A DNA stretch of 64,000 bases from a bacterium. Its GTDB lineage: Bacteria > Patescibacteriota > Minisyncoccia > Sungbacterales > HO2-52-23. A program made the position numbers and the translations under genes. The notes under the pieces were generated by a model. The model ran no database searches, was not told where the DNA came from, and saw only the letters and a program-made list of their open reading frames with translations. The stretch lies in the NCBI GenBank assembly GCA_030697705.1, contig JAUYPE010000017.1, forward strand, positions 5,066-69,065, in the 5' to 3' direction. Below are positions 4,887 through 62,341 of the stretch, in pieces. Every line of letters begins with the position of its first letter. Position 1 is the first letter of the stretch.

Positions 4887-5083
4887 ATGAAGAAGATGAC
4901 AATAGCCCTTGGATAATAATTTTCGTCGCGAAATTTTATGATTTTGAGTGAGACAAAGTACAATTTCAAAACATATACGCATTATATGTTCAAAAATCCT
5001 TTGCAAAGCTGTTGCAAAGATCCAAAGCTTATACGTGCAGGACAAAGGTTATTACGCAGGGGTACTCCGGTCGTTGATTTATC

Positions 5084-18112: not shown

Positions 18113-18689
18113 ATGGCGACCTATTTGTTCATTGACGGGGAAAACTTCAAGGGTAAGGTACGCGCGGTTTTCAAAGACGCCAGTAAGCAACGGCCAGTAT
18201 GGCATGAGTATGACTTTAAGGGTCTTTTGGACAAGGTGCTCAATGGCATTGCCATAGATCGGCAGGTATTCTATTTTGCCAGTATTAAGGAGCACGCGGA
18301 AAGCATGGAGAAGTCAAAGCAACTGATTGAAGAACAACGCCTGCTCAAGACCCATCTTGAGCGGCAGGGTGCGGGGTCAGGTGGAAGACGGCAAGTGGAT
18401 GAGGAAGGTATTGATTTTCAGAGAGAAGGGTGTGGATGTTCGGATTGCCGTGGATATGATGGCTACCGCGTGCGATAAAAAAGCGGATGAGATTATTTTG
18501 GGAAGTTCTGATTCTGATTTACAGCCGGCCATAAAAGAGGTACGAGAGCATGGGGTCAAATGCGTATACCTAGGTTTTGAGACGCAACCAAACAAAGGCA
18601 TCTCTTACAATACCAACCGAACTATTCTCGTTCGCAATTCAGAGATTTTTGAGTTTGAGAAAATAGGTAGCAAGTCAAAAGAGAATTGA
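18113..18689 (+). pseudogene. NYN/LabA-like (DUF88) nuclease gene interrupted by a frameshift
   Basis: N-terminal half in frame 2 (YLFIDGENF ...) and C-terminal half in frame 0 (KGVDVRIAVDMM ... ILGSSDSDLQPAI ... VYLGF) overlap at 18327-18478. Frame switch near 18355-18400 (ggtgcggggtcaggtgg). Confidence 0.7.
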
Positions 18690-19150: not shown

Positions 19151-19543
19151 TCAAAGTGGTAATCGTTTCCAGCCGTTCCAATCGTCCTTTCGCGCATCCT
19201 TGCCGTCACCCTCATAGAGCATCCATTGTCCAGTATACTTGCGGGTGTCTGTATTTGCCACAATACCACCGAATACTTTGCGGCCTTTCTTTTTCAATCC
19301 AGCGATATATGCCCGCAGACCGTCTGACTTTGATGCGAAGTCCGTCAAGTGTATGCCATGCGGATCAAAAAGCCCGATACTTCCGTCTTTTATCATTACG
19401 ACAAAATCAACATAGAATGGCGCTTGATCATCTTTTGGCCCATACTGCACGGCAAGGAATACTGCGTCGCGGTCTCCGTTTTTGAACCACCAAAGACAAA
19501 GTATCAAAAAAACGGCAATACGCATCACTATACTTATTACCAT
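19151..19543 (-). CDS. hypothetical membrane-anchored protein
   Basis: Stop is 3 nt upstream of the REC gene start (operon-like). N-terminal TM helix. Start uncertain (19543 or 19525). Confidence 0.4.
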   Translation of the reverse strand: MVISIVMRIAVFLILCLWWFKNGDRDAVFLAVQYGPKDDQAPFYVDFVVMIKDGSIGLFDPHGIHLTDFASKSDGLRAYIAGLKKKGRKVFGGIVANTDTRKYTGQWMLYEGDGKDARKDDWNGWKRLPL

Positions 19544-20182
19544 TGCACGAAACGCAAAGACCCGAACTGTACTCAACCAGCCATAGAAGAAGATGAGCTT
19601 GAAAAGCAGATTGCCGCCGAGCTTGCCAAGCTGGAAATCCCCACTGATTTCAAGGATTGGGCTATGGCGCGCTTGCGTGATATGAATACGCAAGAGGTAT
19701 CAGACCGAGAACAGATTTGCGGTAACCAACGGCGCGAATACGATGCGTGCGTGCGCAAGGTCAATAATCTCATTGATATGCGAGCCAACGGCGAGATTGA
19801 CGAGGATGAGTTCAAAAACAGGAAGACCGCGCTTTTGGCAGAAAAGGCGCGGCTTCAAGAGTTTCTGAATGATACCGATAAGCGCGTGGACAACTGGCTT
19901 GAGATCGCCGCGCGCGGCTTTAATTTTGCGGAAAAAGCTCGTGGAGCGTTTGAAACGGGCGGCGCTGAGGTCAGGAAAGAGATTTTTGCCGCGTTAGGTT
20001 CGGACTTCCTGCTGAAAGACAGAAAATTAAGCATTTCACTGGATAATCTGCTGTTTCCGATACAAACTGCCGCAAAAGAAGCTCAAAACATTTCTACAAG
20101 GTTAGAACCTGCAAAAAACGCGATAGATAAAAAAGAAATCGGGCATTTATATGCCCGAAATCCTGTCATGCTCCGGCGGTAG
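19538..20182 (+). pseudogene. large serine recombinase C-terminal remnant (zinc-ribbon YYHC motif plus coiled-coil), catalytic domain missing
   Basis: YYHCTKRKDPNCTQPAIEEDELEKQIAAELAKLEIP and a long coiled-coil region match the C-terminal part of large serine recombinases. Nothing resolvase-like upstream. Ends overlapping the tRNA-Asn 3' end. Confidence 0.55.
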
Positions 20183-20208
20183 GATTCGAACCTACGACCC
20201 ACTGGTTA

Positions 20209-20748
20209 CATGTATTCCATTATTTCCATAATGGCATGGACTATATCTTTACCGTATGGTTTTGCCAATGCTCGCCATGTAGGTACTCTGGTATCTAGTC
20301 TCTACGGAGCTCCCCGCTAAAAGGCAGGGTTCCCACGGTATTACCCGTCTTTGTGTCAAAAAGATTTGGGCTTCACCGTTATCCCAGAGAGTTCACTCTT
20401 GGGTTTCCCCAGGAGGCTGCGCTATGCCTGCGTGTATCTCTCGGTGACAATTCGCGCATACGAGAACGCATTTATTGATTTCCTTTTTGATCTTTTCCCA
20501 ACTGCGCGTTACTCCGCGCACCGAGATACCGAAATCTTTTTTCTTTGGGTCAAGATGATGAAAATCGAGCGCTCCCGCATAGCGTTTATAGCCACAAAGC
20601 TGACATTTGTCGCCCTCGTATTCACGTGCCATTGTGCAAAGTTTATGTCTTCGCTCTGAAACAGCTTTTCGCAGATACTCGGCACGATCGGCATACGTTC
20701 TTTTATCTGGCATGCATGGTTAAGTATACCAGACTGGCGAACTCGTTC
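20209..20748 (-). other. group I intron (self-splicing) within tRNA-Asn, carrying an HNH endonuclease ORF
   Basis: 5' exon ends in U, intron ends in G (…acatg|taa). Conserved group I core elements: R-like gagactagatac and S-like aaagatatagtcc in the 3' part. Confidence 0.7.
20393..20713 (-). CDS. HNH homing endonuclease (intron-encoded)
   Basis: CQLCGYKRY..GALDFHHLDPKKKDF ... CANCHREIH, HNH with two Cys pairs. Same orientation as the tRNA, starts 35 nt inside the intron. Confidence 0.8.
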   Translation of the reverse strand: MPDKRTYADRAEYLRKAVSERRHKLCTMAREYEGDKCQLCGYKRYAGALDFHHLDPKKKDFGISVRGVTRSWEKIKKEINKCVLVCANCHREIHAGIAQPPGETQE

Positions 20749-21348
20749 ACAGCCAGTCGCTCTACCACTGAGCTACGCCGGAATATGATTCTGGAAAAGT
20801 ACGTACCCTCACCATCCGCGACCAGTATAACAAGCGTGCGGAGGATTCGCAAGCAGGTGTATCCGTCCACCTCACATTGGACTTTTCTGATTGAGCGCTT
20901 ACCATAACCGGGACCGTCAATCGTTTTGCGTAAATAGTCCTGTGGATAAGTTTTTCTCGACGCAGCGTTCATGAAAGTTTGACCTGATCAGGATGCAAGA
21001 TTGCAATACTCGCATGATCATTGAGCTGAACTTCAGAAATCTCAAACTGTTCTTCGGTCTTGTTACCTCGCTTCCCCGATCAATCAATGGCTACCTCGCC
21101 AACTACTTTTATTCAATCCTTGCCTACGCGTTACGATAGTTTTCTTTTCTCCGTGATACCTTTTTCCTTCACCAATACGATACGCTTCAAAACTCACATC
21201 ACATGGGTCTGCTTTAGCGCACCCTGTTTATCTGGGGTTTGGGGAGTTTCGTAATTCAAAGAAAGAGTAATTAATAACGACATCATAATACCGGTACTTA
21301 CGTATGACAAGCATGGTTTTATCTACACCCTTCTTTTCAAAGGAACGC

Positions 21349-47125: not shown

Positions 47126-47209
47126 GGGGATGTGGTGGAATCGGCAGACACGCAGCGTTCAGGGCGCTGTGAGCGCAAGCTCGTGGGAGTTCAACTCTCC
47201 CCATCCCCA
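47126..47209 (+). tRNA. tRNA-Leu(CAG), type II with long variable arm
   Basis: ggggatg tg gtg..cac g cagcg ttcaggg cgctg, variable hairpin gagcgcaagctc, T arm gggag ttcaact ctccc, then catcccc a. Anticodon CAG. Confidence 0.75.
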
Positions 47210-61450: not shown

Positions 61451-61472
61451 AAAAACTCGATCAACGAGAATA

Positions 61473-61556
61473 TGGGTAGGGTGAGAGTTGAACTCACGAG
61501 GCCTATTAGACAGCAGATTTACAGTCTGCCCCCGCCCCCTACGGGTCTACCTACCC
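61473..61556 (-). tRNA. tRNA-Tyr(GTA), long variable arm
   Basis: Acceptor gggtagg / cctaccc. Anticodon arm gcaga ctgtaaa tctgc is identical to E. coli tRNA-Tyr. T arm gtgag ttcaact ctcac. Confidence 0.7.
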
Positions 61557-62341
61557 AGCTCATTCATAATCCATTCAAATCGTTCACCATGCTTGGGATT
61601 CTTCGGTTGTATTTCTTGAAAAAAACGAATAATTTCCGGACGCTTTGTTATATAAAACCTAAAACCGCTTATATGAGATGGGTGGTAATCTAAAAACTTA
61701 CACGCTCTGTGGATACCCTTCAAAAGCGGCAGTGACCTATTGGTAAACGATATCTGTACACCAAATCGCAACCGGTACACAGATCCGTCAGTGTCAAAGA
61801 AACCTCGCACCAAGCGCTCAAGGTACTGCGATTTCTCAAAGATCCATTCGGGAACGCTAACCTGCGCTCGTACTTTATTGTATACCAAACCTTCATCTTT
61901 CAGCCAATGACTGAGTGCTACGGATCCAACATAAACATTCTTATAACCTGTCTTTCGGATGCCTATTTTGGGAGCTACCCCAAAGAGTCCCTTCATGAGC
62001 CGAACGATATATTCCGCATATGCATACTCTTTTGTCCCCAGTGTTACAATAACTTGATAGAACGAGAGGTTGCCGTCCCCCAGCATAATCCCAAAGAATT
62101 CAGCAAGATCGGGTGAATAGGATTTTGGAATGATAATATCCTCGCGTCTTTTTGCGCTATACCCTTTTTTAAGGTACGGCGTTGATACAATGCCCAGTCG
62201 CTGTATTCTCTGAAATACGGTCTGCTCGGCGATACCAAGAATCTTGCCAACTTCTCTAATCGTTTTATTTTCAACGGTATAGAGACGGTTGAGTTCTTTT
62301 CTCATCTTTCCTTCTTCCCCATGAGTCCATCGCCGAGGCAT
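61547..62341 (-). CDS. LAGLIDADG homing endonuclease (double-motif) with N-terminal HTH domain
   Basis: Two LAGLIDADG motifs: FGIMLGDGNLS and RGFFDTDGSVY. N-terminal sigma-70-region-4-like HTH (TIREVGKILGIAEQTVFQRIQRL). Start at MPRRW. Last codons overlap the tRNA-Tyr 5' end (stop is the tRNA U8-A9-G10). Confidence 0.75.
   Translation of the reverse strand: MPRRWTHGEEGKMRKELNRLYTVENKTIREVGKILGIAEQTVFQRIQRLGIVSTPYLKKGYSAKRREDIIIPKSYSPDLAEFFGIMLGDGNLSFYQVIVTLGTKEYAYAEYIVRLMKGLFGVAPKIGIRKTGYKNVYVGSVALSHWLKDEGLVYNKVRAQVSVPEWIFEKSQYLERLVRGFFDTDGSVYRLRFGVQISFTNRSLPLLKGIHRACKFLDYHPSHISGFRFYITKRPEIIRFFQEIQPKNPKHGERFEWIMNELGR

Follow-up and report, generated by a model that had tools for sequence, protein, structure and literature searches.

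An HNH endonuclease gene in the P1 loop of a group I intron that splits a Patescibacteria tRNA-Asn(GUU) gene between positions 35 and 36

A tRNA gene that is interrupted within its anticodon loop raises the question of what the interrupting element is, how a tRNA could be recovered from it, and how an endonuclease gene can coexist with a ribozyme inside it. We have addressed this question for a tRNA-Asn(GUU) gene on the minus strand of contig JAUYPE010000017.1 (assembly GCA_030697705.1), from a bacterium assigned to the Patescibacteriota (Sungbacterales). The stretch analysed, hereafter the window, comprises 64,000 nt (contig positions 5,066 to 69,065), and all positions are given in its own numbering. 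We are confident that the element is a mobile group I intron inserted between tRNA positions 35 and 36 of this Patescibacteria gene, and that it belongs to the HNH endonuclease-bearing class already described; the mechanism proposed below is the most likely way in which it would splice and home. The element is very likely functional.

The 5' exon (20782..20749, minus strand; TCCGGCGTAGCTCAGTGGTAGAGCGACTGGCTGT) supplies tRNA positions 1-35 in 34 nt and ends in CUGU, and the 3' exon (20208..20171, minus strand; TAACCAGTGGGTCGTAGGTTCGAATCCTACCGCCGGAG) supplies positions 36-73 in 38 nt, beginning with UAA and ending in the discriminator G, the CCA being unencoded. When run in its intron-aware mode, ARAGORN calls this gene tRNA-Asn(gtt) i(35,540), and the joined exons are folded by the same program into a clean cloverleaf with stems of 7, 4, 5 and 5 bp and the anticodon loop CUGUUAA. 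A first-pass annotation, made from the sequence alone, had proposed two minus-strand halves of a canonical tRNA-Asn at these coordinates, 540 nt apart, with this anticodon loop after splicing and with the insertion between positions 35 and 36, and each of these proposals is borne out. The spliced tRNA is identical to uninterrupted Patescibacteria tRNA-Asn genes at 55-60 of 72 positions, and ARAGORN detects no second tRNA-Asn within the 64-kb window. Neither default-mode ARAGORN nor an Rfam scan of the window at gathering thresholds reports the split gene. Because default tRNA scanners overlook it, a genome of this kind would wrongly seem to be devoid of tRNA-Asn and its completeness score would fall. 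The window scan also showed that two of the four uninterrupted tRNAs called by ARAGORN are in the Rfam gathering list, a tRNA-Leu with a long variable arm and a tRNA-Tyr (47126..47209, 61472..61557) being unlisted; omission of these two is a matter of tool sensitivity and not of biology.

As delimited by sequence, Rfam and ARAGORN, the intron is 540 nt long and extends on the minus strand from G1 (20748) to a terminal G (20209), with GAACGAG at its 5' end and ACAUG at its 3' end. U35 (20749) precedes the intron and G 20209 closes it, which are the splice-site bases that the first-pass annotation had assigned, and 35/36 is the only boundary at which U stands ahead of the 5' splice site while the intron also ends in G. 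This observation bears on the possibility that the locus is a dead tRNA pseudogene carrying an unrelated insertion, or that other boundaries define a different tRNA, for example tRNA-Thr(UGU) split at 33/34. Default scans do overlook the gene, and roughly one in two homologous loci receives a Thr, His or Ser label from ARAGORN, as either version of this reading would have it. However, the Thr, His and Ser labels are a known two-base boundary artefact (PMC13011429), ARAGORN calls Asn for the window copy, and relatives share the arrangement of an exon ending in CTGT and an intron-terminal G followed by TAA. The ribozyme core is, in addition, under structural selection, as described below, and we therefore regard this possibility as very remote. 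The Thr(UGU) 33/34 boundary was itself rejected for the window copy, in which it would leave A as the last intron base.

The intervening sequence has the anatomy of a group I ribozyme. In a 1-kb search, the Rfam group I intron model RF00028 matched 20487..20217 (36.5 bits, E = 1.7e-7) with a good alignment from P3 to P9, including GUAGAGACUA and AAGAUAUAGUC. The R-like (GUAGAGACUAGAUAC) and S-like (AAAGAUAUAGUCC) core elements, pointed out in the first-pass annotation, align to the P7/J8-7 region of the model. P1 and P2 are placed arbitrarily by this alignment, inside the open reading frame (ORF) of the endonuclease, and this placement was disregarded. The guide was instead located through short, endonuclease-less relatives, in which the exon end CUGU is followed by a loop of 5-10 nt, GCAGC, a P2 hairpin capped by a GNRA loop, (G)AUGAAC... 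and P3. Because these introns, when lined up, share GCAGC at this place, the window guide could be identified at the end of the ORF. This internal guide sequence, the 3' strand of P1 (20415..20421, minus strand), reads C-GCAGCC and pairs with G1 and the exon bases GGCUGU, as indicated by both relatives and fold. GCAGCC (20420..20415) lies approximately 330 nt 3' of the 5' splice site, within the last codons of the HNH ORF, where it is encoded in Ala-Gln-Pro, and U35 pairs with G 20420 as a U.G wobble. P2 follows directly, still inside the ORF, as the hairpin UCCUGGG-GAAA-CCCAAGA with one C.A mismatch (20414..20397, minus strand; per-pair counts in 74 introns). The stop codon UGA (20395..20393) comes after P2, and P3 is next. 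The last nine codons of the ORF (Ala-Gln-Pro-Pro-Gly-Glu-Thr-Gln-Glu) thus double as the P1 3' strand and the whole of P2, and the endonuclease gene fills the P1 loop.

The core, P3 to P9, occupies 20217..20389 on the minus strand and was delineated by Rfam, RNAalifold, pair counts, shuffle and slide controls, minimum free energy (MFE) folding and comparison of core types. P3 is formed by 20389..20384 and 20291..20286, P4 by 20378..20374 and 20340..20336, and P7 by GACUA (20300..20296) and UAGUC (20243..20239), the last forming a pseudoknot with P3. P8 lies within 20285..20250 and P9 (20234..20217) has a GGAA loop; P5, P5a, P6 and P6a are also present in the core. When the P1 loop is removed computationally before folding, the MFE structure recovers P1 (GGCUGUG/CGCAGCC), P2, P3, P4, P5, P5a, P6 and P6a, with a z-score of -3.07. 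A P1-P9 fold with a guide that pairs with the exon, whose failure the first-pass annotation had named as grounds for withdrawing its proposal, can be drawn, the partner of GGCUGU lying 330 nt downstream in the ORF end. A candidate guide nearer the 5' end, GCCAGUC at intron nt 11-17, could pair without mismatch to GACUGGC of the anticodon stem; it provides no U.G at the splice site, is unconserved in relatives and was rejected.

Related introns indicate that this fold is maintained. A metagenome scan using a pattern specific to the core of the window, by which P4 and P6 are partly fixed, returned 120 loci, 76 of which resolve into a tRNA-Asn interrupted at 35/36, by a short intron (184-352 nt) in 60 cases and by a long one in 16, and 74 distinct introns sharing the core of the window made up the covariation set to which the following counts refer. 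CUGU:GCAG is invariant (74/74), and intron nt 1 covaries with the base before the guide (GC 35, AU 12, CG 9), whereas pairing of the guide to tRNA positions 30 and 31 is seen in only 35/74 and 28/74 relatives, respectively. This pattern defines the conserved P1 as CUGU:GCAG, with four pairs to the exon and a continuation on the intron side, and the six exon P1 pairs in the window are longer than typical. A strict 6-bp exon:guide search across loci matched solely loci with a GGCUGU exon and was dropped, its outcome pointing to the same shorter conserved P1. The seven pairs of P2 are 84-97% canonical with 3-6 pair types each, P3 is 100% canonical with UA, CG, UG and GC types at four positions, and P5 and P8 are 97-100% canonical, again with several types, at well-aligned positions. 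Over the variable helices (P2, P3, P5, P8 and the P1 extension), 94.3% of cells are canonical compared with 34-50% after sliding of the partners and no more than 75% in any of 500 column-shuffled sets, and 427 cells carry double changes compared with a shuffle mean of 133 and maximum of 181. P4, P6 and P7 are invariant and therefore uninformative on covariation. MAFFT misaligns P9 and the P5a/P6a/P8b extensions, and P9 was judged instead from folds of the individual tails, of which 49/74 give a hairpin with 5 bp or more; a GAAA, GUAA or GGAA loop is found in 66/74. Combined, these sequence comparisons give clear indication of structural selection on the ribozyme core. The intron folds as a group I ribozyme and is a new member of an already published class.

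The same architecture is observed in genomes. According to a scan of the genome collection, relatives of the endonuclease are present in at least 572 species genomes; 80 loci were fetched and examined together with the window, 81 in all. tRNA-Asn is split with CTGT before the intron and G/TAA at its end in 73 of the 81, and the endonuclease gene resides inside a 498-712 nt intron in about 62, the architecture recurring in at least 62 of the 80 fetched loci. The terminal G before TAA is present in all 73 parsed genome loci and in the 76 metagenome loci. Recurrence across both genome and metagenome loci argues that the split-gene architecture is not a product of chance. Two ribozyme cores carry the same endonuclease. 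In the majority, P7 is succeeded by P7.1/P7.2 hairpins, which are characteristic of subgroup IA. The compact core has no P7.1/P7.2 and runs from P7 directly through GAUA into P3'; it occurs in the window and in loci L045, L049, L051, L054 and L078, and is the common endonuclease-less form in metagenomes. The compact core (GGGATAACGGT...ACCGTGGGAAC) is also seen in introns that ARAGORN calls in tRNA-Asp(GTC), tRNA-Tyr(GTA) and one tRNA-Leu(TAA), all of them candidate calls (L084-L203).

The ORF in the P1 loop (20713..20393, minus strand) encodes 106 aa, and its product is identical to NCBI MDP3772266.1. It matches the Pfam HNH family PF01844 with 25.6 bits against a cut-off of 21.4, in agreement with the co-oriented HNH ORF recognised in the first pass. 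At least 1692 homologs were detected, the best 120 at 65-91% identity, and the hosts of named homologs are Doudnabacteria, Kaiserbacteria, Parcubacteria, Saccharimonadia and UBA2103. The protein has the pattern CxxC...HH...N...CxxCH...H, with C37, C40, H52, H53, C82, C86, N88, C89, H90 and H94 invariant among 29 sequences, and all 28 family-invariant residues are kept. An AlphaFold2 model of the ORF has a predicted local distance difference test score (pLDDT) of 88.6, and its top Foldseek matches in the PDB, all weak with TM scores of approximately 0.4, are the HNH domains of Cap5 and Cas9, the Gme HNH nickase and T4 endonuclease VII. A PDB sequence search with the protein gave no significant match and thus no close solved relative.

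Another reading is that the ribozyme is intact but the endonuclease gene is a decaying passenger that no longer homes, in an intron that is fixed and inherited only vertically. At related loci the ORF is frameshifted or truncated (L010, L044, L053, L071), and the wider group in which it is apparently truncated, frameshifted or without a clean start further includes L002, L054 and L076, which suggests that the gene is decaying in some lineages. In the window, by contrast, the ORF is full length with every family-invariant residue in place, its 120 best homologs are distributed across many candidate phyla, and relatives are widespread in phage tRNA arrays beside tRNA-Asn. We accordingly consider a decaying passenger improbable for this locus and retain the mobile intron.

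How the endonuclease gene could be expressed from within the ribozyme is suggested by the sequence immediately before it. In the P1 loop, (G)UCUGGUAU is predicted to pair with AUGCCAGA(U) in a hairpin which covers the start codon (20705..20734, minus strand; MFE -11.8 kcal/mol), and the 5' strand of this hairpin contains a consensus match to an extended -10 box, TGGTATACT (20731..20723, minus strand), 9 nt before the ATG. A TATACT/TATAAT box, defined as at least 5/6 matches to TATAAT, is present in 59 of 73 endonuclease-bearing introns compared with 7% of control windows; its 3' end is 6-11 nt from the ATG and it is preceded by TG-n in 43 of the 59. In 59 of 72 introns the fold prediction has all of the start AUG base-paired, compared with 26% when the upstream bases are shuffled, and the mean energy of the start-codon hairpin is -10.5 kcal/mol versus -3.7 kcal/mol in controls. 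Compensatory variants of the hairpin are few, TGATAT occurring with ATGTCA and TGCCAT with ATGGCA, and no obvious Shine-Dalgarno was seen in the upstream regions inspected. The proximity of the box to the ATG and the lack of an obvious Shine-Dalgarno in these regions are suggestive of an internal promoter giving a nearly leaderless mRNA, and endonuclease expression is probably separated from splicing.

The same observations could be read differently, the TGGTATACT box being only the 5' strand of a translation-attenuating RNA hairpin and no promoter, with the endonuclease rarely translated from the precursor or the excised intron. The box is indeed complementary to AUGCCAGA, the hairpin is predicted in most introns (59/72), there are a few compensatory variants, and the -35 element is unscored for the box. 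Against this reading, the box stays TATACT/TATAAT instead of covarying freely with the non-coding bases before the ATG, it is preceded by TG-n in 43/59 cases and is always positioned 6-11 nt from the ATG, and it persists in free-standing copies of the gene outside introns. The lack of an obvious Shine-Dalgarno likewise fits a leaderless mRNA. We therefore judge attenuation without a promoter to be unlikely, although it is the most serious of the competing explanations, and prefer an internal promoter located within the hairpin.

Taken together, the features described are consistent with the following mechanism. Transcription would be initiated at a promoter approximately 40 nt upstream of the tRNA, where a promoter-like site is recognised by consensus match only (TTGCGA, 17 nt, TG-n-TATACT; 20852..20824), and would end at a terminator just past the 3' exon, where a terminator-like hairpin (20158..20139, 8 bp, 5 of them G-C) followed by a T-run begins 13 nt beyond the tRNA 3' end (20129..20158 in total). 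In the precursor, the exon sequence GGCUGU would pair with GCAGCC 330 nt downstream to create P1, with the endonuclease gene looped out, and the compact core P2-P9 would bind guanosine at P7 and cut after U35. By analogy with the family, the terminal G (20209) would then be used for exon joining, producing a normal tRNA-Asn. Intron-less tRNA-Asn alleles are the expected substrate for nicking or cutting by the HNH protein, and repair would then copy the intron into them. The -10-like box 9 nt before the ATG would drive a nearly leaderless endonuclease mRNA, and on the long precursor the box would pair with the start codon and hide the ATG, a logic resembling that of the phage T4 intron endonucleases.

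Several points weigh against this interpretation. The RF00028 score is below the gathering score of 50, which is why the window-wide Rfam scan returned no intron, and no convincing P10 was found in the intron. Pair frequencies at tRNA positions 30 and 31 indicate that two of the six exon P1 pairs in the window may be fortuitous. The fold-search matches of the endonuclease are weak, with E values of 0.096 or above. Covariation of the start-codon hairpin is modest, one strand being coding, and the putative internal promoter is a consensus match alone. Finally, the intron for which splicing has been shown in vitro is an endonuclease-less relative with a larger core, whereas the window copy is endonuclease-bearing and compact.

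The endonuclease is not confined to introns. In approximately 10 genome loci a homolog is free-standing beside a tRNA-Asn that is either intron-less or contains a short endonuclease-less intron, located 5' of the tRNA in L020, L022, L024, L069, L030 and L079 and 3' of it in L027, L040 and L029. Free-standing copies retain the TGGTATACT box and are without the Thr-Gln-Leu-Pro tail encoded by GCAGCTTCC. Loss of the tail in these copies suggests that it is kept in the intronic copies for the sake of the RNA. It is possible that the free-standing Patescibacteria copies are intermediates of endonuclease invasion or loss. In viral contigs (L204-L283, endonuclease match at about 1201-1450), relatives with 45-65% identity are located inside phage tRNA arrays in 77 of 80 loci. 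tRNA-Asn(GTT) is the nearest tRNA in 43 of these 80 loci and lies within 300 nt in 50, although it makes up only 15% of the tRNAs there. The tRNA-Asn neighbours in phages and in Patescibacteria lend indirect support to tRNA-Asn DNA as the target of the enzyme, and the phage arrays suggest that phages are a reservoir. A broader proposal is that the extended -10 box, the start-codon-hiding hairpin and the ORF constitute a portable cassette targeting tRNA-Asn, caught at three stages of the route by which an endonuclease invades an intron: free-standing in phage arrays, beside tRNA-Asn in Patescibacteria, and in the P1 loop of two different cores, where its last codons would have been recruited for the guide and P2. 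We advance this tentatively, as a plausible scheme about which we are more doubtful than convinced; if it is true, phages would be the vehicles spreading the intron across Patescibacteria.

With respect to known systems, the first-pass annotation had described tRNA-Asn group I introns as unusual, a statement which is outdated as they have been mapped by tFind and are the dominant tRNA intron of Patescibacteria (PMC13011429). Nakagawa et al. (mSystems 2026; PMC13011429) counted, among 95 complete Patescibacteria genomes, 15 tRNA-Asn(GUU) introns at 35/36, classed the Patescibacteria introns as IA and not IC, and observed precise in vitro self-splicing of the endonuclease-less tRNA-Asn intron of GCA_016700035.1. 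Four of their tRNA-Asn introns encode PF01844 HNH endonucleases, and a Paceibacteria intron in their supplementary table (GCA_016699425.1) contains ...ggtatac...ATGccagacacaagaacctatgctgatcg with an ORF starting MPDTRTYADR. The window intron shares with this class the gene, anticodon, insertion site, splice-site bases, phylum and endonuclease family, and in both the PF01844-bearing intron exceeds 500 nt (540 nt in the window). It differs in that its core is compact, whereas most endonuclease-bearing copies and the intron spliced in vitro have P7.1 and P7.2, and the window derives from a metagenome-assembled genome outside the complete genomes surveyed. The guide inside the ORF, the promoter and the start-codon hairpin are not discussed in that study. 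tFind (Williams 2020, bioRxiv 10.1101/2020.01.27.920355) had increased the classes of bacterial tRNA intron from 4 to 21, among them a class 'Asn.4Ug' as cited in PMC13011429. The precisely mapped tFind tRNA-Asn introns resemble the window intron in that U is the last exon base ahead of the 5' splice site, the intron ends in G and the insertion follows the fourth base of the anticodon loop; tFind is a catalogue only and does not describe the anatomy of the endonuclease-bearing form.

Classical tRNA introns belong to subgroup IC3 and are found in cyanobacterial tRNA-Leu(UAA) at 34/35, in tRNA-fMet, in tRNA-Ile of Azoarcus and in tRNA-Arg of Agrobacterium. They resemble the window intron in being small, in interrupting the anticodon loop, in forming P1 from anticodon-loop and stem bases and in having a similar J6/7-P7 (GUAGAGACUA), but differ in the tRNA and position occupied and are mostly without an endonuclease gene. 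For expression, the closest comparison is with phage T4, in which intron endonucleases have their own promoter immediately upstream, a hairpin that blocks translation on long precursors and is unable to form when transcription starts at the internal promoter, and ORF 3' ends that run into ribozyme structure (PMC2988022). The likeness extends to an endonuclease gene in a group I intron loop, an ORF end overlapping the ribozyme and, as predicted for the window, a promoter within a hairpin. In T4, however, it is a Shine-Dalgarno that the hairpin covers, transcription is from late or middle phage promoters and the host gene encodes a protein, whereas in the window it is the AUG that would be hidden, the mRNA is predicted to be nearly leaderless and the host gene is a tRNA. 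Among HNH enzymes, I-HmuI and I-HmuII of SPO1/SP82 are intron-encoded nicking endonucleases. I-PfoP3I is introduced as an intron-encoded phage HNH endonuclease (PMC3428280). These are likewise small HNH proteins in group I introns, but the PDB sequence search detected no close sequence relationship and theirs target DNA polymerase genes. Free-standing homing endonucleases are known from phage tRNA regions, including T4 SegB (PMC2988022, PMC13096335) and HNH proteins in tRNA arrays (PMC5966550), a setting shared by the relatives of the window protein at 45-65% identity. An association of this HNH family with tRNA-Asn was not found stated in the literature searched. Overall, the locus adds nothing categorically new, since HNH-bearing tRNA-Asn 35/36 introns are published and occur in hundreds of species genomes; what it may contribute, modestly, are the details of expression and architecture and the link to phages. 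The overlap of the coding sequence with the guide and P2, the promoter-in-hairpin switch and the tRNA-Asn neighbours in phage arrays provide hypotheses, cheap to test, on the coexistence of endonuclease gene and ribozyme in so small a genome.

The remainder of the window is in keeping with a cellular origin, encoding ordinary genes such as those for DnaG, RNase J, a Mur ligase and a penicillin-binding protein. The best named homologs of the RNase J (66-77% identity) are from Candidatus Sungbacteria, Parcubacteria and the Patescibacteria group, which by homology places the host as a Patescibacterium close to Candidatus Sungbacteria. An ORF on the plus strand (19349..20182) is convergent with the tRNA-Asn gene, overlaps its 3' end by 12 nt and corresponds to no more than the C-terminal portion of a large serine recombinase, with a Zn_ribbon_recom match of 24.5 bits, just below cut-off, and a coiled coil. 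No catalytic N-terminal recombinase domain is present upstream of 19349..20182, where a response-regulator gene is located on the opposite strand, and the ORF looks like what is left of a mobile element that had inserted next to the tRNA gene. Further upstream, two overlapping plus-strand ORFs in different frames (18113..18689) resemble a single frameshifted NYN-domain gene, PF01936 being detected only in the second of them, and reflect either a pseudogene or an error in sequencing.

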